Positions 8,763-42,584 of a stretch of DNA of 64,000 nucleotides are shown in pieces. The first letter of the stretch is position 1; each line of letters opens with the position of its first letter. The translations under genes were made by a program, and so were the position numbers. Below the pieces are notes generated by a model. That model saw only the letters and a list, made by a program, of their open reading frames with translations, made no database searches and was not told where the DNA came from. The DNA is taken from the NCBI GenBank assembly GCA_030408475.1, contig JAUHQG010000010.1, forward strand, positions 81,752 through 145,751, in the 5' to 3' direction. This DNA is from Candidatus Amphrikana amoebophyrae. GTDB lineage: Bacteria; Chlamydiota; Chlamydiia; Chlamydiales; JACRBE01.

Positions 8763-10913
8763 TTAATAATTAGCAGGATAAATCTCTAAGTCCTTAATAT
8801 CTATCGCTTTCATTAACTCTTTTACAGCTTTCGCAAATGCTATCTTATCGACATCAATTTCAGAGTTAATCAAAGCCAATACACTCACGATGCGAGAAAG
8901 GCGCTGAATTTCAACATTTCTCTCCCGCACAAGTAGCGCTGGCGCAAAAATCATCCTCAAAATAAGGTCTTTTTCCTCTTCACTCCAATTTAAATCAGTG
9001 TGCATAAGCTTTAAAAAGCCATAAAGACCAAAAGTTGAAGTAGAACCTATATCGACCCCATCTTTACAAGAGTAACTAATATAAGAAGGCTTACACATGA
9101 AAATTATCTTCATCTCTAAAAATTGATAGAAAATCTCAATAAAATCGAGCCTATTTTTTCTAGTCAAAACATTCTTCTTATTGAAAAACAAATCGTGAAT
9201 TTGAACTATCGCATCTTTAGAAAATTGAAGGATTTCTTCCCTGTCTAATGATGGCGGAAAGTAAAATCCACAAGGCTTTCCTTGCTCAATTTGCTCTATT
9301 AAAATGTCCATAAATGATGTAGCATCATTATTCATTAAATATTCTTCAGCTTGGTGATAAAACTGAGTATGTTTAGCCAGTGATACCACTAAAAGGGTCT
9401 CTTTTAATTCGATTTCACTTTGTAATTTTTCAATCGTATCCGATCTCGCATGCCCCTTCCAAGATGTTCTATCTTGCAAATTGAAAATCAAGAGCTGCTT
9501 TTTTTGGTCTCCATCAGACAAATGTCTCATAAACCCCTTAAACTCCTCAACCACTGACGCTTGATTGATTACTTTTTGCCTGGTTGGGGACGGAAGTTTA
9601 ATACAAGTGCAGTCTAACTCACTTGATTTGAACCTAAATAACTTATATGGATAGTTATCATAGTCCATTGGAGAGTAACCATACTTATACTCTTTATCCT
9701 TAAAAATATCGATTGTCTTCATTAAAGGACCATTTGGGTAGTGTTTCAACAAATGGTGAACTGAGTCGTAACAATCTAATATCCAAGTCCAAATAGAAAA
9801 CTGGTGCTTAGGCGAGTCTTTCATCTGACCGCGCTTAAGCATATCACGTATAAACTCAACTGATCCAAGCTGATCACCGCTATGTAAGAAAAAGTTGCCG
9901 CAAAGAGTATGAACTATATGAACGACCTCTTTTTCATACCCACTCTCTTTTTGCTCACCTGTACTATATCTTAAATAGTCTTCATGATTGATCATATGAC
10001 GCAAAAAAACATGGAAGTCTCTAAAGTAACCCAAACAACTCTTTCCACGTCTCTCTTTAATCAAATTCTCTCTATTGGCAGCAGCCATTAACGCCATTAG
10101 TGCTTTGTATATTGTTTGCGTTAAACCATGTTCTTTATGAAGCTTTGCAACCGTAACAAAGTGATCTAACTCCGTCTTTATAGATTCAAGTATTTCATTA
10201 GCAGTTATATAAGCATCTTTATCTTGTACAACTTTCGAATAAATAAGCGGGTCATCACCTACAATTTCAGAAATCATCTCATCAAAATCGGTAACCAATT
10301 TCAAATTTCGTAAAAGTTTATTACTAAAAAAAGTTCGTCCATTTTCCTTTCTGATATAAAAAAGCTCGTATTCCTGGTCTCTTTTAACTTCTTCAATATC
10401 TCTGATTTTTAATGTATAGTTATCGTCAAATTGTTCAAGATCGGGAATGTCATTCATCCATGCTTCTTCTTTCTCAAGCACTTCCTTGAATTTTTCAATC
10501 ACCTGTTTTTGATAAAAACCAGATAAAGACCTATACTCTTCGTATTCAACAGCTTTCTTTTCTTTTGCTCTAGGCTCAAGCACCCGATATAAGTCATCAA
10601 CTCTTGATGCCGCGGCTTTTGTGAGCCCCATAATAGCTCGAATCCCCTTTTGAACTTCGACATCTTTCAATGCTTTGGCATCTTTAGTAATCACATGCTT
10701 CATATAGTCATGCACAACATTGAACGTCTTCTTTATCAACGCTTTAGTATGGTCACGATCTTCAATGTCAAGCCATCTAGCCGTCTCTCTTAACACCTCT
10801 AAAGCAGCTCTTCCCTTAGTCATAACATCGTCTATATCAATGTCTGCCATACTAGTTAAGTTGTCTACAGCCTCTAGTATTGTAAATTCTTCCTTATGAG
10901 CATGTTGTGCCAT
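8763..10913 (-). CDS. large hypothetical protein (716 aa)
   Basis: Long uninterrupted ORF with A/T-biased third positions. GAGG lies 7 nt upstream of the ATG at 10913 (MAQHAH), preferred over the track start at 10925. No family recognised. Confidence 0.7.
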   Translation of the reverse strand: MAQHAHKEEFTILEAVDNLTSMADIDIDDVMTKGRAALEVLRETARWLDIEDRDHTKALIKKTFNVVHDYMKHVITKDAKALKDVEVQKGIRAIMGLTKAAASRVDDLYRVLEPRAKEKKAVEYEEYRSLSGFYQKQVIEKFKEVLEKEEAWMNDIPDLEQFDDNYTLKIRDIEEVKRDQEYELFYIRKENGRTFFSNKLLRNLKLVTDFDEMISEIVGDDPLIYSKVVQDKDAYITANEILESIKTELDHFVTVAKLHKEHGLTQTIYKALMALMAAANRENLIKERRGKSCLGYFRDFHVFLRHMINHEDYLRYSTGEQKESGYEKEVVHIVHTLCGNFFLHSGDQLGSVEFIRDMLKRGQMKDSPKHQFSIWTWILDCYDSVHHLLKHYPNGPLMKTIDIFKDKEYKYGYSPMDYDNYPYKLFRFKSSELDCTCIKLPSPTRQKVINQASVVEEFKGFMRHLSDGDQKKQLLIFNLQDRTSWKGHARSDTIEKLQSEIELKETLLVVSLAKHTQFYHQAEEYLMNNDATSFMDILIEQIEQGKPCGFYFPPSLDREEILQFSKDAIVQIHDLFFNKKNVLTRKNRLDFIEIFYQFLEMKIIFMCKPSYISYSCKDGVDIGSTSTFGLYGFLKLMHTDLNWSEEEKDLILRMIFAPALLVRERNVEIQRLSRIVSVLALINSEIDVDKIAFAKAVKELMKAIDIKDLEIYPANY

Positions 10914-17080: not shown

Positions 17081-19216
17081 ATGAACGACGAGCTTCTTCA
17101 GATAAAGCTACAGTTTGAAAGCCCTCCTGAAGTTCAGGAAGGCCTAGAGTTTTTTGTTAAGTCTCTTGAATCTTCTCTTCGCTTGATGATCCCTAAGTCA
17201 GTTCTTGAAAAAGCGCCAGACCCCAACGACAAAGATGCAACACGAGCTTTCTTCGGAAAAATCGGAACAGAGCTCCCTCTTATATATACCTCCTTTGGAA
17301 AAACTGCCCCTTATATCATTTCGATGAAGTTCCTCGCTTTTTCTGAACTCACTCATGGTATGGGTCGATTTGTAAGTGATGTAGTCAGCCGATGGCTTGT
17401 TCCTGGAAAGCAACTCCCTTTGTTAAGCGTAAATTCAATGGCCTTTGAATTTGTTCGCTACCCAGGAATTGGCTTTTTTTTTCATGAACTTTTTTTAAAA
17501 GCTGAAAATGAGAACGATTTTAATGCGATTAAAAATAACTTAGATAATTTAATGGATCAAATTAAGCTCAATATTTTATCTGTTACCCATGCTAGAAAAA
17601 TCGTAGCTCAAAAAAACCTGACGCTCGATCAAAAAAAGATGATCATTCAAGAAAACATAGCCTCACTTTTAGGGAAACCCAAGCAAGTTCATGATGAAAC
17701 CATCTTCGACCAATCCCACCAATTTTTAGTCAAAATTTTAGCAGAAAAACAAGTTTCTTCCATTAAAGAACAAATTGCTCCACTTTTAGAACTGCGCCCT
17801 CAAATTTTTGAGCGTGACGTTTTTAATGAACTTCATGAAGGGCTATTACTACTAAAAGAGAGCTTTATCGCCTATAGAGACAGTAAACACCTCACTAGAA
17901 TTATTGCTTATATCTACCTATTTAGAAAAACTGTTGCTAACTCGGCTATATTACACCCCAATCAACGCCACTTAAGCCTAAAAGTTCTTAAAACTAAGAT
18001 CAAAGACAATAACAACATCCATCCTGTTTTAGGACTTGTCATTAGCCTTAATATTTTGCGCGAAAATGAAATTTTTGAAGAACGTCATCTCGCAAAGGCC
18101 ATTAATGCTATACTACCCTTCGCAAGGAAAGTTCAAGACTCTTATTTCGAAAGCAGAAGAGCCGATTCAGTTCGCAATTTCTATATAGAAATAGAAAAAA
18201 TCGACTCCACTCCATTTACTTCGCTTGAAATAGCCATGATTAAACAAAAGCTGCCCACTGAAGTTAAAACTCGAATTGAAACGGTCATTAACCCTATTTT
18301 TATTCAGAAGAATGAAGAAGAAGTAATGCGTAATATTTTAGTTCTAAGCAACCAACTAAAATATGTTCATGATATCCCTCAACTTATTATTTCATTCTTA
18401 AAGCAAACTGATAACTCCCTTTCTTTTATCGTAGTAATGGCCCGCCTATTACGCGGGAATGACCGCCCTCTCAAGTTTCTTCTTTCTAATTGTCCAGAAG
18501 GAATTCGAATCGAAAATCACGAAGTAAGATCAATGGGCCTTTTAAGAAAAAAATACCCTAAAGAAGCTAATGTTTTCGAAGTTCATATAGAAAAACAACG
18601 CTTTTTAAGAGAAGATTTCTCTTTAGACTTGTATGAAGCACGTCGAGTAGTGTATGATAGTTTATCAAGCGTATTAGGTGATATAAGGGATTATAACGGC
18701 GGCATGATTTCAAAACAAAATGAAGCTTTAGGCGAACTAACTAAACTATTATTAGAAGAAGATATTTCAAATAACTTTCTTATAGAAAATTATTTCTACT
18801 CTCTGAAACCTATCTACATGCAATCAGTATTGCCCCCTATTATTCTGAAAAAGCAATTCATGATGCTTATCCAACTCACTGAACACGACTACTCCCAACA
18901 ACCTTATTTCATGCAAATGCAAATTGTTGATAACTATTTCATTTTAATGCTCGGATCCATGAGTCCATCTTTCAAAGACATTATCTTTAATAGCATCGAA
19001 AACTGCGGCATTAACTCAAATGACCTCACCTCCTCACTTCTTAACAACCATGACGTTTTGTGCCTAGGATACCTTTACCAGTTTACTAATCCTAAAGATT
19101 ATGAGACCTTATTAATTTCAGTTACAGAAGGGATTAAAAATTGGCAGAAGTCTATCCAGTCACCACAAAAATTTGACCCCGTAACACTCCATTTAAAGCA
19201 AACTCAACGTCTTTAA
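17081..19216 (+). CDS. large hypothetical protein (711 aa)
   Basis: Long ORF with no TM or signal peptide. No family recognised. Confidence 0.65.
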   Translation: MNDELLQIKLQFESPPEVQEGLEFFVKSLESSLRLMIPKSVLEKAPDPNDKDATRAFFGKIGTELPLIYTSFGKTAPYIISMKFLAFSELTHGMGRFVSDVVSRWLVPGKQLPLLSVNSMAFEFVRYPGIGFFFHELFLKAENENDFNAIKNNLDNLMDQIKLNILSVTHARKIVAQKNLTLDQKKMIIQENIASLLGKPKQVHDETIFDQSHQFLVKILAEKQVSSIKEQIAPLLELRPQIFERDVFNELHEGLLLLKESFIAYRDSKHLTRIIAYIYLFRKTVANSAILHPNQRHLSLKVLKTKIKDNNNIHPVLGLVISLNILRENEIFEERHLAKAINAILPFARKVQDSYFESRRADSVRNFYIEIEKIDSTPFTSLEIAMIKQKLPTEVKTRIETVINPIFIQKNEEEVMRNILVLSNQLKYVHDIPQLIISFLKQTDNSLSFIVVMARLLRGNDRPLKFLLSNCPEGIRIENHEVRSMGLLRKKYPKEANVFEVHIEKQRFLREDFSLDLYEARRVVYDSLSSVLGDIRDYNGGMISKQNEALGELTKLLLEEDISNNFLIENYFYSLKPIYMQSVLPPIILKKQFMMLIQLTEHDYSQQPYFMQMQIVDNYFILMLGSMSPSFKDIIFNSIENCGINSNDLTSSLLNNHDVLCLGYLYQFTNPKDYETLLISVTEGIKNWQKSIQSPQKFDPVTLHLKQTQRL

Positions 19217-19228
19217 CTTGAGGTCGTT

Positions 19229-19681
19229 GTGTCAAATTATAGATCACACACCCTCTTTAACCTCTTTTTTCTTCTTCCCCTTTCAACACTTTCGGTCTTC
19301 TATTTCTTTGTCCCATCTAGATTTAACTTACTTCTCTATATAGGAACTTTCACATACGCTACATGCTTTATGACACCCGATGCCGATATAGCTAATAAAA
19401 TAAAACTGCTTTCTTTAAGAGGAGTAATGACTCTCCCTTTTAGACCTTATAGCATGTTATTCTCTCATAGAGGGATATCGCACATCCCCATCATTGGCAC
19501 ACTGACTCGGATTGGGTGGATTTGCGGGTGCTTCTTTCTAATCTATACTTTTATCTATAATCACACCTTTTCTTTTCACCCCATCATTGAATTTTATCAT
19601 ACTCACACCCTTTCTATTCACTACACTCTTTCAGCTCTTTTCGTTTCTGATATTGGACATTTGATACTAGATAAAAAATAA
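19229..19681 (+). CDS. membrane protein, DUF2227-like putative metal-binding hydrolase
   Basis: 150 aa with a GTG start. TPDADI...HRGISHIPIIGTLTRIGW resembles the DUF2227/YdjM-like pattern (SPDxD...HRGxSHxxxxGT). Confidence 0.45.
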   Translation: MSNYRSHTLFNLFFLLPLSTLSVFYFFVPSRFNLLLYIGTFTYATCFMTPDADIANKIKLLSLRGVMTLPFRPYSMLFSHRGISHIPIIGTLTRIGWICGCFFLIYTFIYNHTFSFHPIIEFYHTHTLSIHYTLSALFVSDIGHLILDKK

Positions 19682-21390: not shown

Positions 21391-21748
21391 ACTTGAAAGA
21401 GAACTCAAAAAATTTGTTCTAGATAGAGATTGGGATCAATTTCATTCTGTTAGAAATTTGGTGACTCAACTATCTTGTGAATCGGCTGAACTATTAGAGC
21501 ATTTTATCTGGTCTCAAGACGATAAACACCTCCAAGACCCTGAAACTCTTAAAAACATAAAAGAAGAAATAGGCGATGTCTTAAACTGCCTTGTTTTAAT
21601 AGCAAGTAAACTCAATATCGATTTACCCCAATGTGGCCTTGACAAACTAAAAAAAACAGCAAAGAAATACCCTGTTGAATTAGCAAAAGGCAAGTCGCTC
21701 AAGTACAACAAATTAAAAGAGAACAATAAAAATGGAACTCCCAATTGA
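21380..21748 (+). CDS. MazG-like nucleotide pyrophosphohydrolase (small all-alpha NTP-PPase)
   Basis: RDWDQFHSVRNL...ESAELLEHFIW...IKEEIGDVLNCLVLIA matches the EXXE...EXXD MazG motif. ATG at 21380 (MLSKLEREL) overlaps the permease stop by 11 nt. The track start at 21347 lies inside the permease gene. Confidence 0.7.
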   Translation: MLSKLERELKKFVLDRDWDQFHSVRNLVTQLSCESAELLEHFIWSQDDKHLQDPETLKNIKEEIGDVLNCLVLIASKLNIDLPQCGLDKLKKTAKKYPVELAKGKSLKYNKLKENNKNGTPN

Positions 21749-23516
21749 GGCTGTAACCTCTTCTTCTGCCATCATTACCCAATTAGAATTTGATCACCCT
21801 TCCCTTTATTACCTTGAAATGCGCCCAAAAGAAATGGGGCGAACAACTATCATGTGTAAAACTGATGACAAAGTAGTTGAAATCTTACCTAGCGAATTTT
21901 CAGTTGGGTGTAGCATCCATGAATATGGTGGCCGCGCATTAGAAGTGAGCAATGGTCGAATTTTCTTTGTAAGTTCAAATAACAATCCAGGTATTTATGA
22001 AATCATTAATGGCGAACCCAAGTTAATCTTTCATCACGATTCTATGCGTTTTGGTGACTTGCGCTTTGATAAGAAAAGAAACCAACTTTTTGCTGTTTGC
22101 GAAACTCATAACACCCATGTTTCAAATAATTTAGTTCGAATAAATATTGAACAGCAGTCGATAACTACAATTGCTGAAAACAGCGACTTTGTTTCTTCAA
22201 TCACCCTTCACAACGATCAAATCGCCTGGGTAGAATGGGATCACCCTCATATGCAATGGGATGAATCCCGAGTTCACACTTCACAACTAGATCAATTTGG
22301 AAACCTCGTTTGTATTCAATCTGTTTGTGCTTGCCCTAAAACAAGCGCTTCATCACCTAGGTTTTCACAAGAAGGAAAACTCTACTTTATGTGGGACCGC
22401 TCTGGATATTGGAATTTGTACGAAGCGGGTAAATTAGAAGCCCCTCTTTTTAAATTTGATGCCGATTTTGCTGAGCCTATTTGGCAAGTTGGAGAGTGCT
22501 CATATGAAATTGTAGATGATACCGCTATTATGATCGGGACTCAAAATGGAGAAAACATACTCGCTTCAACTCACCTTGAAACTCCTAAACTCCAATTACA
22601 CCCTCTCCCATATAACACCCTTTCTAAGTTGACTGTTTGCAACGGTTGCATAAGCTTGATTGCTGGATCCAGCCAATCTCTTCCTCAATTAATCCACTTA
22701 GAACTTCCATTAGACTCAAAACCTCCCCTTATGTTGCCCCCTGCCTTATTCTCCAATATTACAACACCTAAGGCTATTACTCAAAAAAACCGATTTAACA
22801 ACCATATTTATTCTTTTTTTTACAAGCCTGCGGGAATTGAAAAACCTCCCTTGATAGTAAAATGTCACAGTGGGCCCACGAGTCGCTGCTCACCACTTCT
22901 CAACTTACAAACTCAATTTTTCACATCAAGGGGTTTTGCTTTTCTAGAAACTAATTTTAGCGGTTCAACAGGTTACGGTCGTCAATATAGAGAACGGCTT
23001 AACTATAAATGGGGTGAGCTAGATGTCACTGACTGTATTGATGCCACATCCAATCTAATTGACAACAACACAGTTGACCCAAACAATATATTTATAATGG
23101 GCTCTAGCTCTGGAGGGCTAACCGCACTATCTGCTTTAAGCCGCTGTACTCTATTTAAAGCTGGAATAATCTTATATGGTGTGACCGACCTCATTGAGTT
23201 AACTAAAGAGACTCATAAATTTGAGCAATATTACTTAGAAAGCTTAATTGGCCCTTATCCAAACCAAAAAGATCTATACATTGAAAGAAGTCCCAGCTCT
23301 CATTTCGAACAAATATCAAGCTCTTTACTCATATTCCAAGGCTTAAAAGACAAAGTAGTCTCACCCACCCAAGCGACTAATTTACACAACATCTTTAAAC
23401 ATAGCTCAGAGCTAATAGAATTTGAAAACGAAGGGCACGGTTTTAAACAAGCTGATTCTAAAACTATAGTTCTTGAAAAAACCCTCTCATTTATTAAGTC
23501 TTTGTTAAGGCAATAA
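21732..23516 (+). CDS. S9 family (prolyl oligopeptidase/acylaminoacyl-peptidase-like) serine peptidase
   Basis: 594 aa. N-terminal propeller-like region, then a C-terminal alpha/beta hydrolase with nucleophile elbow GSSSGG and terminal EGHGF. Overlaps the MazG end by 17 nt. Confidence 0.75.
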   Translation: MELPIEAVTSSSAIITQLEFDHPSLYYLEMRPKEMGRTTIMCKTDDKVVEILPSEFSVGCSIHEYGGRALEVSNGRIFFVSSNNNPGIYEIINGEPKLIFHHDSMRFGDLRFDKKRNQLFAVCETHNTHVSNNLVRINIEQQSITTIAENSDFVSSITLHNDQIAWVEWDHPHMQWDESRVHTSQLDQFGNLVCIQSVCACPKTSASSPRFSQEGKLYFMWDRSGYWNLYEAGKLEAPLFKFDADFAEPIWQVGECSYEIVDDTAIMIGTQNGENILASTHLETPKLQLHPLPYNTLSKLTVCNGCISLIAGSSQSLPQLIHLELPLDSKPPLMLPPALFSNITTPKAITQKNRFNNHIYSFFYKPAGIEKPPLIVKCHSGPTSRCSPLLNLQTQFFTSRGFAFLETNFSGSTGYGRQYRERLNYKWGELDVTDCIDATSNLIDNNTVDPNNIFIMGSSSGGLTALSALSRCTLFKAGIILYGVTDLIELTKETHKFEQYYLESLIGPYPNQKDLYIERSPSSHFEQISSSLLIFQGLKDKVVSPTQATNLHNIFKHSSELIEFENEGHGFKQADSKTIVLEKTLSFIKSLLRQ

Positions 23517-23600: not shown

Positions 23601-25199
23601 ATGCGTAAAGTTTATTTTTACCTCCTTCTTATACTCTCTCCATTGCTAAATGCTGAAGAGAGTAGTGATTTAGAAAAACACATGATCAACTTTTCTAATG
23701 TAAAAGCATCTGAACTTATTCGCTTTGTTAGTAAGATTACAAAATCTAATTTCATCTTTAACGACAAAGACTTGCAATTTGAAGTTAGTTTTATTTCTGG
23801 TAAAGAATCTTCGGACAAGCAAATCTTAAGCTCTATGATCACTTTGCTTAAACATCACAACTTTAATGTGAAGGGGAAGCAAGGATCATTTGTCATAGAA
23901 AAATCAACAGAAAAAAAAACTGTTGCTTCAGCCAAGACTACTCCTGATAAAAATTCAAAGAAATCAGAAAAGTTAGTCAAGGCTATTACAAAACCCCCTT
24001 CACCCAATGAGAAGTTTTCAGTCTATAAACTGCAATACCATCAAGGTGATGAAATTTTGTCCGCGGTCAAACAACTAGCTGCCAACTCGCAAAGAAACGA
24101 CCCCGATTTTGGCGCTGCTGTCGCCTCAATGCAGTGGATTAAAACAACCAACTCTCTTGTGATTTCTGGAACTTCAAAAACTATCCCTAAATTACTCTCA
24201 CTTGTAAAAAGTTTAGATACTCCTCAAAAGCAAGTCTTCATAGAAGTTCTGGTAGTGGAAACTGATATAGGAAAAGGACATGAGTTTGGCTTGAATTGGA
24301 GCGCTAACTCCCAATATAAAAACAAGTTAGGACTCTCTATGAGCAACCAATCAGGAGCACCCGGTTTTGCTAATACGATGAAGTCGATTGTAGGTGCAGG
24401 TCTCCAGGGAATATCTCACATACCAGGAGCTGGTTTTAGTCTTGGAGTAATTGGCGATATTATAACTCACAAAGGAACCACTTTTCTCTCTTTAGGCTCT
24501 TTAGTCTCAGCCATTCAAACAGATAATGCTACTTCTATAGTTCTTAATCAAAAAGTGATTGCCCAAGACAACAAGACCTCTAAGATTTTTGTTGGTCGCA
24601 ATATCCCCTTCGCTGGATCCGTAGTAGAAACAGTAGGACAATCTCAACAAACCACTTCAAATATTGAATATCGTGATATTGGAACTTCATTAAGCATCAC
24701 CCCTTATATTGGAGATAATGGCATTATCACCATGGAAATTCATGAAGAAATTTCTGAAGCTCATGACCGCAATATGATACACTCAAAGAGAGTAAGTGGT
24801 ATAGAAACCACTAAAACCAATATGCAAACAAGAGTTCACGTTCCAGACACTCACTTTGTTGTTTTAACAGGTATGGTGCGCAATAAAAAGAAGAAAAATG
24901 TGTCTGGCATTCCTTGCCTTGGCGGCCTCCCTTGGATTGGCGCCGCATTTAGTAAAAAAGAAGAAGAGTCAGAAAAACGTAATATTATAATATTTGTCAG
25001 ACCTCACATACTTAATACTTTTGAAGACTATGAAGTGATCACCAACCTTGAAACTCAAAAGGCAAAAGAATCACAACTTACTGAAGAGCTAATTCAAGAC
25101 ATTCTTATAGACACAAAAGAAGAACCAACCACTGAAGAGTTGATTGAAGATGTTCTTACAGAAGCGTCTAAAACACCTCCTGAAAACCAAAACACCTAA
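23601..25199 (+). CDS. secretin family outer-membrane channel (GspD/PilQ/pIV superfamily), short form
   Basis: Signal peptide, then an N0-like domain (NFSNVKASELIRFVSKITKSNFIF). One further N-domain, then the secretin core (KQVFIEVLVVETDIGKGHEFGLNW...VSGIPCLGGLPWIGAAFS...IIIFVRPHIL). Confidence 0.8.
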   Translation: MRKVYFYLLLILSPLLNAEESSDLEKHMINFSNVKASELIRFVSKITKSNFIFNDKDLQFEVSFISGKESSDKQILSSMITLLKHHNFNVKGKQGSFVIEKSTEKKTVASAKTTPDKNSKKSEKLVKAITKPPSPNEKFSVYKLQYHQGDEILSAVKQLAANSQRNDPDFGAAVASMQWIKTTNSLVISGTSKTIPKLLSLVKSLDTPQKQVFIEVLVVETDIGKGHEFGLNWSANSQYKNKLGLSMSNQSGAPGFANTMKSIVGAGLQGISHIPGAGFSLGVIGDIITHKGTTFLSLGSLVSAIQTDNATSIVLNQKVIAQDNKTSKIFVGRNIPFAGSVVETVGQSQQTTSNIEYRDIGTSLSITPYIGDNGIITMEIHEEISEAHDRNMIHSKRVSGIETTKTNMQTRVHVPDTHFVVLTGMVRNKKKKNVSGIPCLGGLPWIGAAFSKKEEESEKRNIIIFVRPHILNTFEDYEVITNLETQKAKESQLTEELIQDILIDTKEEPTTEELIEDVLTEASKTPPENQNT

Positions 25200-25713: not shown

Positions 25714-26961
25714 ATGACTAATAGTAAAGCTCGCCAGATTATTCCCATATTGATCGTCTTATTTTTAGGCTATCTTGGTTTTGCCCTCGTCTTACCCATA
25801 TTCCCTCCCATGTTTTTAAGTAAAACTGGCCATACTATTGTTTCTAAAGCGTATTCTCCTGAAATGCGTACTACGCTTTTAGGTTTGCTTATTTCGACAT
25901 ACCCGCTTGGTCAATTATTTGGTGGCCCCATTTTAGGGCGACTATCTGATGTTTACGGTAGAAAAAAAATCCTTGTTTTCACTTTAGCTGTTATCATTCC
26001 CTTTTATCTGCTTTCCTGTTTAGCTATTGTGATTCAAGATTTATGGCTATTATTTGTTAGTCGTTTTTTTTGCGGCCTATTTGAAGGCAACTCTGTTATT
26101 GCAGCTGCCGCTATGGCTGACATTAGTGAATCGAAAAAGGATAAAGTTCAAAAATTTGGTCTTATATTAACAGTGAGTAGTCTTGGATTTATCCTCGGCC
26201 CTTTAATTGGGGGGAAATTAACCGATAGCACTCTAGTTCCTTGGTTTAATTATTCTACACCTTTTTGGATTTGCGCTGCTTTAGTATCAATCGCGCTTGT
26301 ATTGGTCCTATTTATGTTTCAAGAGACACTGAAACCTAACCAACACACTTTCCAACTCCTCAGAACTGTACGATCAATTTTTTCAGCCCTATTTAGATCT
26401 GATTTGCGCAACATCTTCTTATCGAATTTTTTCTTGTTTCTCTCGTTTTTCTTCTTTTTTGGTTTTTTCCCAGTCTTATTAGTATGGTGGTACGGCTTTA
26501 ATGCTACACATATTGGCGAAGTGATTTCGTACTTAGCCATACCCATTTGCCTCTCTCCTTTATTATACTCTATTATGTCTCGATATATGCACCCTAGAAA
26601 CGCAATGGTATTAGCCGCTATTTTATTAATGTGCAGTATCATCTTGCTTCTCACCTTCAATGGAGTCTTTGCACTCTATTTCTCATTAATACCTGTTGGA
26701 ATGTGTATAGCGATTGGATGGACCTACTCTTCGCTTATTATTTCAGATCGGGTAAGCCAAGATAAGCAGGGTGAAGCTCTAGGAACTAATCAATCTATTA
26801 CTATTTTAGCTGAGATTGTAGCGGCATGCCTAGGTGGAATTGTGGCTGGAGTGTCGATGTATTTACCCCTCTTATTTTCAGCTGGATTCGCCCTTATTAC
26901 TGCAATATGGCTACTTATCTTTGTCCCCAAAGATCAAGACTCTCATCAAGAAATTCGCTGA
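25714..26961 (+). CDS. MFS transporter (12-TMS, TetA/multidrug-like)
   Basis: 415 aa, 12 predicted TM segments, MFS motif A GRLSDVYGRKKIL. Confidence 0.75.
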   Translation: MTNSKARQIIPILIVLFLGYLGFALVLPIFPPMFLSKTGHTIVSKAYSPEMRTTLLGLLISTYPLGQLFGGPILGRLSDVYGRKKILVFTLAVIIPFYLLSCLAIVIQDLWLLFVSRFFCGLFEGNSVIAAAAMADISESKKDKVQKFGLILTVSSLGFILGPLIGGKLTDSTLVPWFNYSTPFWICAALVSIALVLVLFMFQETLKPNQHTFQLLRTVRSIFSALFRSDLRNIFLSNFFLFLSFFFFFGFFPVLLVWWYGFNATHIGEVISYLAIPICLSPLLYSIMSRYMHPRNAMVLAAILLMCSIILLLTFNGVFALYFSLIPVGMCIAIGWTYSSLIISDRVSQDKQGEALGTNQSITILAEIVAACLGGIVAGVSMYLPLLFSAGFALITAIWLLIFVPKDQDSHQEIR

Positions 26962-39347: not shown

Positions 39348-40237
39348 ACACTTTTGAGGAAACAAAGAAGCTTATTGAATCAACTTTAAGCGATCTGCTC
39401 GCCCTCAAAAAAGTGGATCACAACGCTCTATATCAAGCAGCCAGATACTCTACCCTCTCTTGCGCAAAAAGACTACGCCCTCTAATCGTTATTGAGCTAG
39501 CTAAAAGCTTTGGCGCTCCTACTCATCATGCATTAAAATGCGCTTGCGCTATCGAATTAATTCATACTTATACGTTAATACATGACGATCTTCCCTGTAT
39601 GGATGATGAAACTGAAAGAAGAGGTAAACCACCTCTTCACCACGCTTTTCCTGAGGGTGCTGCTGTATTAACTGGAGATTTTTTACTTACCTATCCATTT
39701 GAAATTATTTCTTCCGAAGAGATTTTATCCCCAGCAATGAGAGTAGATTTGATTCAAGCTCTATCTAAAAGAATCGGTGGAGAAGGAGTCATTGCAGGAC
39801 AACTATTAGATCTCTATGGAGAGATAAAAAATCAAGACCAGTTTAAAACTATGGTCTTAAGAAAAACAGCCGATCTATTTAGTGCATGTTTTGAATTTGG
39901 AGCTATTATTGGAAAAGTGAGCCAAATCGATAGAGATAATCTAAAGGAATTTGGACAAGTCTTTGGATTAGCTTTCCAATATATAGACGATCTTGAGGAT
40001 GATAATGAATATTCTAGCGACTATATTCAAGATAAAACGACTGCTACTACTATCTTTGGTATAGAAGGACTTCACCTTGAAATCAATCAACTCATAAATA
40101 AAATGCGTAAGATTGAAAGCTGTTTTAACAATGAATTACTCAAGTTTTTAATAACTTTTATAAATGATAAACTTAATTCTTTTCTTTTGGGAAAACCTCA
40201 AATACAAGAACTGGCTGCGAAAAACCTTTTAAGGTAA
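39344..40237 (+). CDS. ispA: polyprenyl (farnesyl/geranylgeranyl) diphosphate synthase
   Basis: First DDxxD-type motif LIHDDLPCMDDETERRGKP and second motif FQYIDDLED. Confidence 0.8.
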   Translation: MNTFEETKKLIESTLSDLLALKKVDHNALYQAARYSTLSCAKRLRPLIVIELAKSFGAPTHHALKCACAIELIHTYTLIHDDLPCMDDETERRGKPPLHHAFPEGAAVLTGDFLLTYPFEIISSEEILSPAMRVDLIQALSKRIGGEGVIAGQLLDLYGEIKNQDQFKTMVLRKTADLFSACFEFGAIIGKVSQIDRDNLKEFGQVFGLAFQYIDDLEDDNEYSSDYIQDKTTATTIFGIEGLHLEINQLINKMRKIESCFNNELLKFLITFINDKLNSFLLGKPQIQELAAKNLLR

Positions 40238-42584
40238 TAGCTTTCAATTCTGTAAATGAAATGGCTTCTTTTACTTTGTAAGACTCTAGAGTTTCTTTTG
40301 AAATTAATAATTGCATTTCTTTGGCAAAAGAACATAATCTAGCTGCTAAATTCACATTGGCGCCAAGCACAGTATAATTCATTCTATTTTCAGCCCCCAT
40401 GTTTCCAGCAACAACAATTCCAGTATGAATCCCAACACCAATATCAAAGGTTAATTTACTCTCCCCTTTTCGATGTCGATTAAATTCCCTAACCCTCTCA
40501 ATCATAGCAAGTCCGCATTCAACGGCTCTAAAAGCGCTCTCATCAGAAGAAAGAGGTGCCCCAAAAAGTGCCATCACTTGATCACCTACATATTTATCTA
40601 TAACACCATTATGCTCGTCAACGATTTTTGATAACAACGTCATATAAACATTTAACACTTTAATTAACTCTGCTGGAGGGATTTTTTCAGTCAATTCAGT
40701 AAAATGTCGAACATCTACAAAAAGAGTCGTGACAATCTTTTCTTCTCCACCAAGCTCAACTTGACCCTCTAAAATCTTATTTGCTATTTCAGGCGAAACT
40801 ACCTTATTTAACACCCCTTTTACCTTCTCTTTCTCTTTAAGACCAATAATCATATCGTGAAAAGATCGATATAGATCGCCAATTTCATCTTTTGTATCAT
40901 GGTCTTGTAAAGAAAGCTCAACTTTCTCTAAATCACCCTCTTTCACTTTCCTAGCTGAGTCAGCTAATATAGTAATTGGAGTCGTCACTTTTCTTGAAAC
41001 GAAATGGATAACGAACATCACAATGATAATAGTTAAAAGACCAATGATTGACATTTGAAAGGAAATCTGACGGCTTAACTTTTTAGCTACCGAAGAAGCT
41101 AGATCTAGTAAAACAAATTCTTTATTTTTTGTATTAAATAAAATAACTCGTACATTGTCATCGACAATTGGCCTTACTGAAATATAGTAATATTCCTTAC
41201 CTAATTTACTTTTGAAAACCCCTTGGTCTTTCTTTAATATCTCTACTAATGGAAAGCTCCCATTTTTATACGTGAATTCCACCCCATGAACATCATAAGA
41301 TTTAATCACTTGGCCATTAACAACTAAAAGCGCATTATCCTCAGAAGCTACAGTCAAACCTTTTAATATATTTCGGATATCGACACCAAGAGTTAGGGTT
41401 CCTTGGTTAATTGAGGAATCATTTATAGAATCAAATCCAGTTGTCTCTCCAATGAATACTCTTCCAGCATCAGCTGTAAACACTTGATCAGTCAATCTCT
41501 CAATTTGTCTATCAAAAAAAAGCGATTCAGTTAAAATCGACTTCCCTATCACCTGATCTTTAACAATATGACTAATCCCTTTTGGCGCACTAAAAGCTAG
41601 AGGATCATAATCATGAATTCCTGTTGCATTGAGAGCTAAAATCTGCCAAATTAAATTAACTTGATCATATCGATCAATCATAATTTGATCAATATTATAG
41701 AGTTCGTTATGCCCGCTTACAACATCATATTGATTTTCAAATTGCTCATGTAACCACTCTTTTTTGGTATACGAAAGCTTTTGCGCTAATTGAGGGTTTT
41801 CTTTTAAATGTTTTTGAGCCTTTACTAGCCCTTGTTTCACTAATTCAACAGACTCTGCTAAAGCCGATAATTGCTCAAAATTAAGTTTTGTATCTGTTAA
41901 ATGTTTAGAAAAAGCTATCACTTTAAATTCTTCTATCTTCTTGTTCACAGATTCTAAATCGAACTCCATCACATAGCGAGGATCGTAAAATAAATAGAAG
42001 TTCAGCTCAGGATTAGCTTGAGCCATTGGCGAAGATATGTTGGGATACTTTACATATGACAATGAGTTAAATGGGAATGGAATAGCAATAAACGGCCCTT
42101 CTAATTCTTTACCAGGAAGTTGAGGGTCAACAACTGCTATTTTTATATCCTCCAAAAATGGTAAATTGAGAACATGATACGGAGGCGGTTCATCGAGAAT
42201 AATCAAAGACGAGAGTTTTTCATTGTTAATATTTTGAATAAGATCGAGTCTTTTATTATTTGACAACAAGGTTGCCGCGGATAGCCACGTATTAGTTTGT
42301 AAATTAAATTCAGACGGTTTGAATGCATCAGCCCAATACGTGGCTGATTTAACCCTTTGTAGCAAAGCTCTAGTTTTAGCTTGGGCATACTGAAGTTCTG
42401 TCTTCATGTATACTTCGACAGCATTCCTCTTGTTACTATTGCGATGAGATATTTGCTTATCAATTTGCAATTCGCTTTTCTTAACTAATTTTGTCGTGAC
42501 GATTTCATCGAGAATTTGAGCTACGAGAAAAGAAATGACAAAAATGCCACCGATAAGGAGAAAGATTTTCGTTCTTAACTTCAC
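40173..42584 (-). CDS. membrane-bound class III adenylate/guanylate cyclase with large periplasmic sensor domain and HAMP
   Basis: TM1 (aa 5-25), about 480 aa extracytoplasmic, TM2, HAMP (PITILADSARKVKEGDL...DEIGDLYRSFHDM), cyclase domain (TTLFVDVRHFTELTE...KYVGDQVMALFGAP...GIHTGIVVAGNMG). Confidence 0.8.
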   Translation of the reverse strand: MKLRTKIFLLIGGIFVISFLVAQILDEIVTTKLVKKSELQIDKQISHRNSNKRNAVEVYMKTELQYAQAKTRALLQRVKSATYWADAFKPSEFNLQTNTWLSAATLLSNNKRLDLIQNINNEKLSSLIILDEPPPYHVLNLPFLEDIKIAVVDPQLPGKELEGPFIAIPFPFNSLSYVKYPNISSPMAQANPELNFYLFYDPRYVMEFDLESVNKKIEEFKVIAFSKHLTDTKLNFEQLSALAESVELVKQGLVKAQKHLKENPQLAQKLSYTKKEWLHEQFENQYDVVSGHNELYNIDQIMIDRYDQVNLIWQILALNATGIHDYDPLAFSAPKGISHIVKDQVIGKSILTESLFFDRQIERLTDQVFTADAGRVFIGETTGFDSINDSSINQGTLTLGVDIRNILKGLTVASEDNALLVVNGQVIKSYDVHGVEFTYKNGSFPLVEILKKDQGVFKSKLGKEYYYISVRPIVDDNVRVILFNTKNKEFVLLDLASSVAKKLSRQISFQMSIIGLLTIIIVMFVIHFVSRKVTTPITILADSARKVKEGDLEKVELSLQDHDTKDEIGDLYRSFHDMIIGLKEKEKVKGVLNKVVSPEIANKILEGQVELGGEEKIVTTLFVDVRHFTELTEKIPPAELIKVLNVYMTLLSKIVDEHNGVIDKYVGDQVMALFGAPLSSDESAFRAVECGLAMIERVREFNRHRKGESKLTFDIGVGIHTGIVVAGNMGAENRMNYTVLGANVNLAARLCSFAKEMQLLISKETLESYKVKEAISFTELKAITLKGFSQPVLVFEVFPKEKN

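Follow-up and report, generated by a model that had tools for sequence, protein, structure and literature searches.

A short secretin of Candidatus Amphrikana amoebophyrae belongs to a conserved chlamydial family close in sequence to the type III secretion secretin CdsC

The gene described here encodes a short secretin and lies in a 64-kb stretch of DNA (hereafter the window, analysed over its whole length) from Candidatus Amphrikana amoebophyrae. The original prediction, made from this DNA alone, had given its product a signal peptide, an N0 domain, a K/S/T-rich linker, a single further N domain and a secretin core, and this layout was confirmed by the open reading frame (ORF), by Pfam and by reading of the sequence. 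The protein is identical to the database entry MDN3504196.1, whose source organism, Ca. Amphrikana amoebophyrae, belongs to the Rhabdochlamydiaceae. Its matches to PF21305 (N0), PF03958 (N domain) and PF00263 (secretin) all exceed the Pfam gathering scores, and the PF00263 match (131.5 bits against a cut-off of 27.5) covers the full model at residues 304-471. With all three of these domains present, the window protein is a member of the secretin superfamily. The coordinates of the gene, its domains and its neighbours are collected in Table 1.

The N terminus (MRKVYFYLLLILSPLLNA, followed by EE), read by eye, resembles a Sec signal peptide and has no lipobox cysteine; the same region forms an N-terminal helix (residues 2-16) in the AlphaFold2 (AF2) model. 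This model, of the monomer only, shows a confident N0 and N domain, the usual secretin sheets and a long helix at residues 474-502, after which confidence is low. The linker, which contains 9 K, 5 S, 5 T and 4 P, varies in length within the family described below and is the gappiest part of its alignment. The N domain stands immediately N-terminal of the core and aligns with the last N domain of CdsC, the secretin (SctC) of the chlamydial type III secretion system (T3SS). The tail is acidic, with 15 D and E against 4 K and R over residues 477-532. GC content is even across the region, the secretin gene being no different from its flanks, and a promoter and terminator scan around the gene gave counts no better than those of shuffled sequences. 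The protein would assemble into a multimeric, gated outer-membrane pore.

Table 1 Features of the short-secretin locus, numbered from the first base of the window
Feature	Position	Strand	Basis or remarks
S9-family peptidase, no signal peptide	21732-23516	+	Directly upstream, 84 nt before secretin start
Short chlamydial secretin gene, 532 aa	23601-25199	+	ATG-start ORF; Pfam N0, Secretin_N and Secretin; exact database match MDN3504196.1
Sec-type signal peptide MRKVYFYLLLILSPLLNA, residues 1-18	23601-23654	+	Read from sequence; cleavage site inferred
N0 domain, residues 29-101	23685-23903	+	Pfam PF21305 at 29-90; AF2 predicted local distance difference test (pLDDT) 86-92 over 30-100
Disordered K/S/T/P-rich linker, residues 102-136	23904-24008	+	Composition; pLDDT <50 over 105-131
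Single periplasmic N domain (N3-like), residues 137-211	24009-24233	+	Pfam PF03958 at 140-211; AF2 pLDDT 82-91
Secretin core (barrel and gate), residues 212-473	24234-25019	+	Pfam PF00263 at 304-471
Acidic C-terminal tail, residues 474-532	25020-25199	+	AF2 secondary structure, composition, comparison with relatives and CdsC
Tail repeat, copy 1, TEELIQDILIDT, residues 494-505	25080-25115	+	Matches single-copy clade motif EE[LM]I[QE]D[IV][IL]L
Tail repeat, copy 2, TEELIEDVLTEA, residues 511-522	25131-25166	+	Extra, lineage-specific copy
Diverged DUF5399 protein, 142 aa	25201-25629	-	Convergent with secretin; one base (25200) between stop codons
Major facilitator superfamily (MFS) transporter	25714-26961		ORF and Pfam

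Searches retrieved more than 800 homologues of the window secretin, the best 120 of which are 470-603 residues long and have the identical layout. The short form was found in at least 80 chlamydial species-representative genomes, all of them Chlamydiota, with one locus per genome; 80 is the safe number, as the genome-scan total of 361 mixes short forms with CdsC, both of which fit the one search pattern. Many residues of the core are invariant in the family alignment. More than 100 short-secretin loci were inspected, and every one of them has housekeeping surroundings; a deep-branching short form (P0379) is likewise found among housekeeping genes. Clustering of the neighbours in 83 loci revealed a conserved synteny in which lptB, kdsA, dapB and DUF5399 lie on one side of the secretin, and a DHH-motif protein, KhpA and RluD on the other. 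In the majority order, lptB-like, lptA/C-like, kdsA, dapB and DUF5399 genes share one strand and the secretin stands head-to-head with DUF5399, while 3' of the secretin a gene for a protein of ~880 residues is followed by those for KhpA, RluD, RecX and HemA. In the clade of the window the secretin has the S9 peptidase gene before it and, after it, a small convergent ORF and the MFS transporter gene, with the same order in loci L003 and L004; an S9 peptidase neighbours the secretin in 18 of the 83 loci. The gene had been called an orphan, a description at odds with its membership of a family that occurs once per genome in 80 or more species and keeps its synteny. The window secretin is an ordinary member of a conserved, poorly characterised chlamydial family.

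Two side observations concern these loci. Many public metagenome-assembled genome records that contain the locus are titled Verrucomicrobia, Acidobacteriota, Aerophobetes, Melainabacteria or 'Chlamydia trachomatis' (L006, L010, L014, L016, L017, L069, L079 and L082), labels that look wrong given the chlamydia-specific gene content of the loci. The downstream protein of ~880 residues (for example L001 13850-16459 and L002 11776-14427; 43 loci) is conserved, has no Pfam match and found nothing useful in NCBIfam. It carries the DHH-type motifs GSPDLDT and MDHHKS and has neither a signal peptide nor a transmembrane segment, features on which it was rejected as a platform component or substrate of the secretin; it is most likely a cytoplasmic phosphoesterase of an undescribed family.

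The original prediction had noted that no partner genes lie within 20 kb of the secretin, and this held for the entire window: Pfam searches with every ORF of at least 100 residues (positions 580-63412) found no genes of type II secretion systems (T2SS), type IV pili (T4P), T3SS basal bodies or phages. Neither a GspE-type Walker A motif nor a prepilin N terminus was found in the 83 loci, pilin and PilB/T-type ATPase signatures were likewise missing from the short-secretin loci, and tblastn with E. coli GspE, GspF and GspC gave no match in 90 loci (1.64 Mb) nor in 17 further metagenome loci. Because platform genes are absent beside the secretin in all loci scanned, the lack of partners is a property of the whole family, a family rule that the window gene follows. 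It is known that chlamydiae distribute the genes of their secretion systems among several loci (PMC3459982).

In most genome loci, and in all 9 metagenome loci with enough flanking sequence, the short secretin lies head-to-head with a gene of the DUF5399 family. DUF5399 proteins are small and acidic and carry no export signal (for example L001 9291-9785, L002 9382-9882 and those of L095-L108); the family has no NCBIfam model and no solved structure. In the window the corresponding place is taken by the 142-residue protein encoded tail-to-tail with the secretin. The two stop codons are indeed one nucleotide apart, as originally stated; the accompanying description of this gene as an orphan did not stand. 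The protein has no signal peptide or transmembrane segment, only six relatives in 5.8 billion proteins, and no match to the Pfam family DUF5399 (PF17377) even at E-values up to 10. A profile of the six relatives, when compared by hhalign with that of 41 DUF5399 neighbours of short secretins, matched over 88 columns with a probability of 97% and an E-value of 1.1e-10, while six control families from the same loci gave probabilities of at most 0.2%. The AF2 model of the 142-residue protein (pLDDT 59, predicted template modelling score 0.31) was too poor for a structure search. On the profile-profile match and its position beside the secretin, the protein is a diverged DUF5399. Since the pair is head-to-head in most loci and tail-to-tail in the clade of the window (window, L003 and L004), it has been kept through rearrangement, and the adjacent DUF5399 gene may thus be regarded as a conserved companion of the secretin. 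In C. trachomatis, DUF5399 may correspond to CT_573, a gene said to belong with gspDEF; we found no paper mentioning DUF5399 or CT573.

The lack of platform genes near the short secretin in any locus scanned, together with DUF5399 as the one constant neighbour, adjacent in two gene orders, would also fit a stand-alone or differently partnered channel that works without a T2SS or T4P platform and perhaps with DUF5399, for example one for DNA uptake that feeds ComEC. It is not known how DNA taken up by chlamydiae crosses the outer membrane, nor have pilins been found (PMC6686042), which leaves room for such a channel. However, DUF5399, having no signal peptide or transmembrane segment, cannot directly contact periplasmic or outer-membrane parts, and the two genes might be neighbours through common regulation or simply through synteny. 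No substrate has positive evidence in its favour either, and if the family has been lost in the Chlamydiaceae, DNA uptake in these organisms would not be explained. We therefore regard a channel of this kind as quite improbable.

We then compared the short family with other secretins. Its closest relative is CdsC: residues 136-490 of the window secretin are 46-49% identical to CdsC over 360-420 residues (E ~1e-108), and its N0 domain is 35-41% identical to that of CdsC, while it gave no BLAST match with the N0 of E. coli GspD. The mean core identity is 0.49 among short forms, 0.44 among CdsC proteins and 0.41 between the two groups, compared with 0.24-0.26 between short forms and E. coli GspD or the pIV of phage fs2. 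In a neighbour-joining tree the short forms and CdsC form one clade in 100 of 100 bootstraps, with E. coli GspD and pIV outside. The best 150 matches of a phmmer search of 1.84 billion representative sequences all have either the short layout or the multi-N-domain layout of CdsC. Cys439 of the window protein (24915-24917), in the motif PCLGGLP, is found in 120 of 120 short forms and in 119 of 120 CdsC proteins, and is a leucine in E. coli GspD. At this place the VPLLGDIP of E. coli GspD corresponds to IPCLGGLP in the chlamydial secretins, an exchange that may bear on the disulfide-cross-linked outer membrane of chlamydiae. Finally, the tails are alike, with ...EEFDEGLDLVKLPENE as the ending of CdsC and ...DFDxGIxLVxP as that of most short forms.

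The assignment of the long relatives as CdsC comes from their gene context. In locus L024 a long secretin is encoded in addition, at a distance of two genes from the short form; members of its family are 1026-1764 residues long among the best matches. Contigs with lengths of 2284058, 390671, 463619, 60943, 125419 and 772661 nt appear in the match lists of both forms, so that both paralogues occur on the same contigs. In L087 the long secretin follows a YscO-like protein, SctQ and a Pkn5-type kinase, and in L088 it closes a full cluster of CesT, CdsD, needle protein, SctN, YscO, SctQ and Pkn5, a pattern repeated in L092. This T3SS context identifies the long secretin as CdsC/SctC. A canonical chlamydial GspD beside gspE/F/G was looked for among these longer secretins and not found: the long secretin of L024 with its 120 relatives and the mid-length types P0357 and P0380 are all CdsC by context. 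In fact, every non-short secretin with a readable context is CdsC.

The likeness between the two forms extends over the N0 domain (35-41%) and over the last N domain and the core (41-49%), and includes the C-terminal helix, a [DE]FDxG[LI]xLVxP-type tail, the PCLGGLP cysteine and a best score on GspD models. They differ in that CdsC (CT674; P0188, P0357 and P0380) has from 2 to >20 additional N domains or an extended N-terminal region (2-24 matched stretches) and 728-2368 residues in place of ~530, and in that CdsC closes a T3SS cluster, with Pkn5 preceding it and a tetratricopeptide repeat (TPR) protein, YidD and Der following, a position that the short form never has. Judged by sequence, the short form is a close paralogue of CdsC, differing mainly by the absence of the N-domain array. 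The range in CdsC length arises through amplification of Secretin_N, and what lies downstream is constant, a TPR-like protein of ~300 residues, YidD and Der (P0131-P0393; L086-L088 and L092). In L086, a 2.28-Mb chlamydial chromosome, a cluster of WD40 and F-box/WD40 proteins (998-8873 and 17848-19392) lies beside CdsC; with their eukaryote-like domains, these are likely host-targeting effectors.

Such close paralogy raises the question of whether the short form belongs with the T3SS, as a truncated CdsC duplicate that forms a stage-specific or auxiliary ring, or co-assembles with CdsC, outside any T2SS. CdsC is the closest relative in N0, N domain, core, tail motif and signature cysteine, and the short clade, recovered in 68 of 100 bootstraps, nests in the neighbour-joining tree among CdsC lineages, whose monophyly has the support of 2 of 100. 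Many members bear the JGI name 'type III secretion protein C', and chlamydial T3SS genes are scattered over loci in any case (PMC3459982). On the other hand, the tree has a short backbone and an uncertain rooting, so that the short clade may be either sister to CdsC or nested within it, and in none of more than 100 loci does the short form lie beside T3SS genes, while CdsC keeps its Pkn5 ... secretin-TPR-YidD-Der order. The Chlamydiaceae, which have a working T3SS, carry CdsC and GspD only, and of the two secretins counted in Protochlamydia one is placed in the GspD cluster. A role of the short form in the T3SS is thus considered unlikely.

Profile scores were of no help in deciding between the two systems. 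The window secretin scores best, among the secretin models, on the GspD model TIGR02517 (224.2 bits, under the cut-off of 351.35), followed by the PilQ model TIGR02515 (153.7 bits, cut-off 284.35) and the SctC model (90 bits). CdsC proteins verified by context reach 369 (P0188, 368.6, which passes the cut-off) and 303 bits on the same GspD model and 91-96 on that of SctC. Since true CdsC scores higher on the GspD model than the short form does, a 'GspD-like' score in chlamydiae is no guide to a T2SS or T3SS role. Abby and Rocha also described the chlamydial T3SS secretin as T2SS-like (PMC3459982). Conversely, many short secretins are named 'type III secretion protein C' by JGI. Names derived from hidden Markov models cannot assign chlamydial secretins to the T2SS or T3SS; gene context and the number of N domains separate them.

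Among secretins of known structure, the best sequence matches were XcpQ and GspD, with PilQ at ~78 bits and f1 pIV (7ofh) at 45 bits; a fold search also placed GspD structures first, with a template modelling score of ~0.25, which confirms the secretin fold only. The likeness to GspD (E. coli GspD, P. aeruginosa XcpQ and K. pneumoniae PulD) thus lies in the best curated model, the best structures by sequence and the combination of N0, N3-like domain and core. Unlike these proteins, with their N0-N1-N2-N3 architecture, the window secretin has N0 and one N domain only, N1 and N2 being absent; its core is ~25% identical to that of E. coli GspD and its gene is unlinked to gspC/E/F/G. PilQ and HofQ have a homologous core; the window secretin has no AMIN domains by Pfam, and no pilM-P or pilin genes lie nearby.

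The original prediction had placed the protein closer to filamentous-phage pIV or to small pilus or competence secretins. As to domain layout this is correct, since f1 pIV and the pIV of Vibrio phage fs2 have the same minimal arrangement of N0, one N domain and core in ~400-500 residues. It does not extend to the sequence, in which CdsC is 46-49% identical and pIV at most ~30%, nor to the phylogeny, from whose short-form and CdsC clade both E. coli GspD and pIV are excluded. A pIV-type secretin or a prophage remnant could indeed be argued from the shared layout and from detectable homology, with phage matches beside the 45 bits of 7ofh. However, the identity to pIV is ~25-30% over partial alignments (fs2 pIV showing 25-26% in the aligned core), the window has no phage genes and the gene no shift in GC relative to the flanks, and the window gene is chromosomal and vertically inherited, its single-copy family keeping the same kind of chromosomal synteny in 80 species or more. 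No relatives were found on IMG/VR viral contigs. By these three lines of evidence, low identity, chromosomal synteny and absence from viral contigs, a phage origin is refuted for practical purposes, and we give it hardly any credence.

We favour the reading that the short secretin is one of the two chlamydial secretins, the pore of a T2SS in the GspD lineage, and consider this probable, though by no means assured. C. trachomatis has two secretins only, GspD (CT572) and YscC (CT674) (PMC6686042). For P. amoebophila, Heinz et al. (PMC2811131 supplement) list two as well, assigning pc1475 to the SctC cluster and pc1898 to that of CT572, and gspDEF with CT_573 are conserved across the phylum according to Domman and Horn. 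In our searches the environmental chlamydiae showed the CdsC type and the short type only. With apparently two secretins per genome and only these two types, the short family is most simply read as the GspD lineage, and going by the two-secretin counts in the literature it probably shares an orthologue cluster with CT572 and pc1898. The same counts indirectly favour the case, against which the original prediction was set, that the gene groups with chlamydial GspD and is the sole gspD of its genome. No paper on 'Amphrikana' or pc1898 was found. In the favoured T2SS reading the short secretin would be the exit channel of a reduced chlamydial T2SS, with N0 docking an inner-membrane partner and a platform of the GspE/F/G type encoded elsewhere in the genome.

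Several observations weigh against this assignment to the T2SS. The proposed orthology to the GspD of the Chlamydiaceae derives from literature tables and the counting of secretins. CT572, with ~760 residues, exceeds the short family by ~230 residues. The gspD gene of C. trachomatis directly adjoins gspE/F/G, which the short form never does in the loci scanned. The window secretin also remains below the GspD cut-off (224 against 351 bits), with CdsC higher on the same model, and the tree sets the short clade among CdsC lineages and not clearly outside them. Finally, the clade of Simkaniaceae and Rhabdochlamydiaceae is without CPAF, the best-known substrate of the chlamydial T2SS (PMC5826181).

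The C-terminal tail holds a feature particular to the lineage of the window. A direct repeat had been predicted here, and an alignment of the two copies (TEELIQDILIDT and TEELIEDVLTEA) and a shuffle test bear it out: the copies are 51 nt apart and share 8 of 12 amino acids and 27 of 36 nucleotides (the nucleotides compared by eye), and only 4 of 5000 shuffled tails contained an internal match as good. Tandem Repeats Finder reports no repeat in the tail. The closest relatives (P0002, P0003, P0005 and P0007) have one copy of the motif EE[LM]I[QE]D[IV][IL]L and the window protein has two, so that a motif of the clade has been duplicated in this lineage; it stands in place of the DFDxGIxLVxP ending of other short forms. 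In other secretins the S-domain or pilotin-binding peptide sits after the barrel and the C-terminal helix (PulD/PulS and GspD/AspS). The tail motif, likewise placed beyond the final strand of the barrel and the C-terminal helix, occupies this very place, as had been proposed. No pilotin candidate was found and no GspB/AspS-type partner was identified. The duplicated amphipathic, acidic motif probably aids ring stabilisation or outer-membrane targeting.

As for the surroundings of the gene in the window, two genes of an ABC-2 transporter, one MazG-like gene and the S9 peptidase gene lie 5' of the secretin, so that the supposed peptidase operon is actually a mixture of transporter, MazG and peptidase genes. 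Two further regions of the window deserve mention. At 2136-5191 on the plus strand, a 165-residue TPR protein with a match to TPR_3, a family that includes T3SS class II chaperones, is encoded amid unannotated ORFs (247 residues upstream, 400 and 188 residues downstream), a possible T3SS chaperone/translocator operon resembling Scc2-CopB-CopD. At 40173-42584 on the minus strand lies the gene for an 803-residue protein with HAMP and class III adenylate/guanylate cyclase domains, which may be a membrane-bound cyclase sensor.

What appeared to be an oddity in the window is an ordinary, conserved chlamydial gene. Modestly new are the close paralogy with CdsC, the constant pairing with DUF5399 and the pitfall in annotation. 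The constant pairing makes DUF5399, an uncharacterised and chlamydia-specific protein, a candidate partner of the secretin and offers a way into its study. More tentatively, and as something we rate as a possibility short of likely, the short secretin might be either the surviving donor lineage of the T3SS secretin, which would have arisen from it by duplication and N-domain amplification, or a third class of secretin that is minimal, unlinked to a platform and paired with DUF5399. That the short form and CdsC are close paralogues accords with an earlier proposal, in which chlamydiae recruited a T2SS-type secretin for their injectisome, and offers a concrete pair of proteins in which this can be studied.

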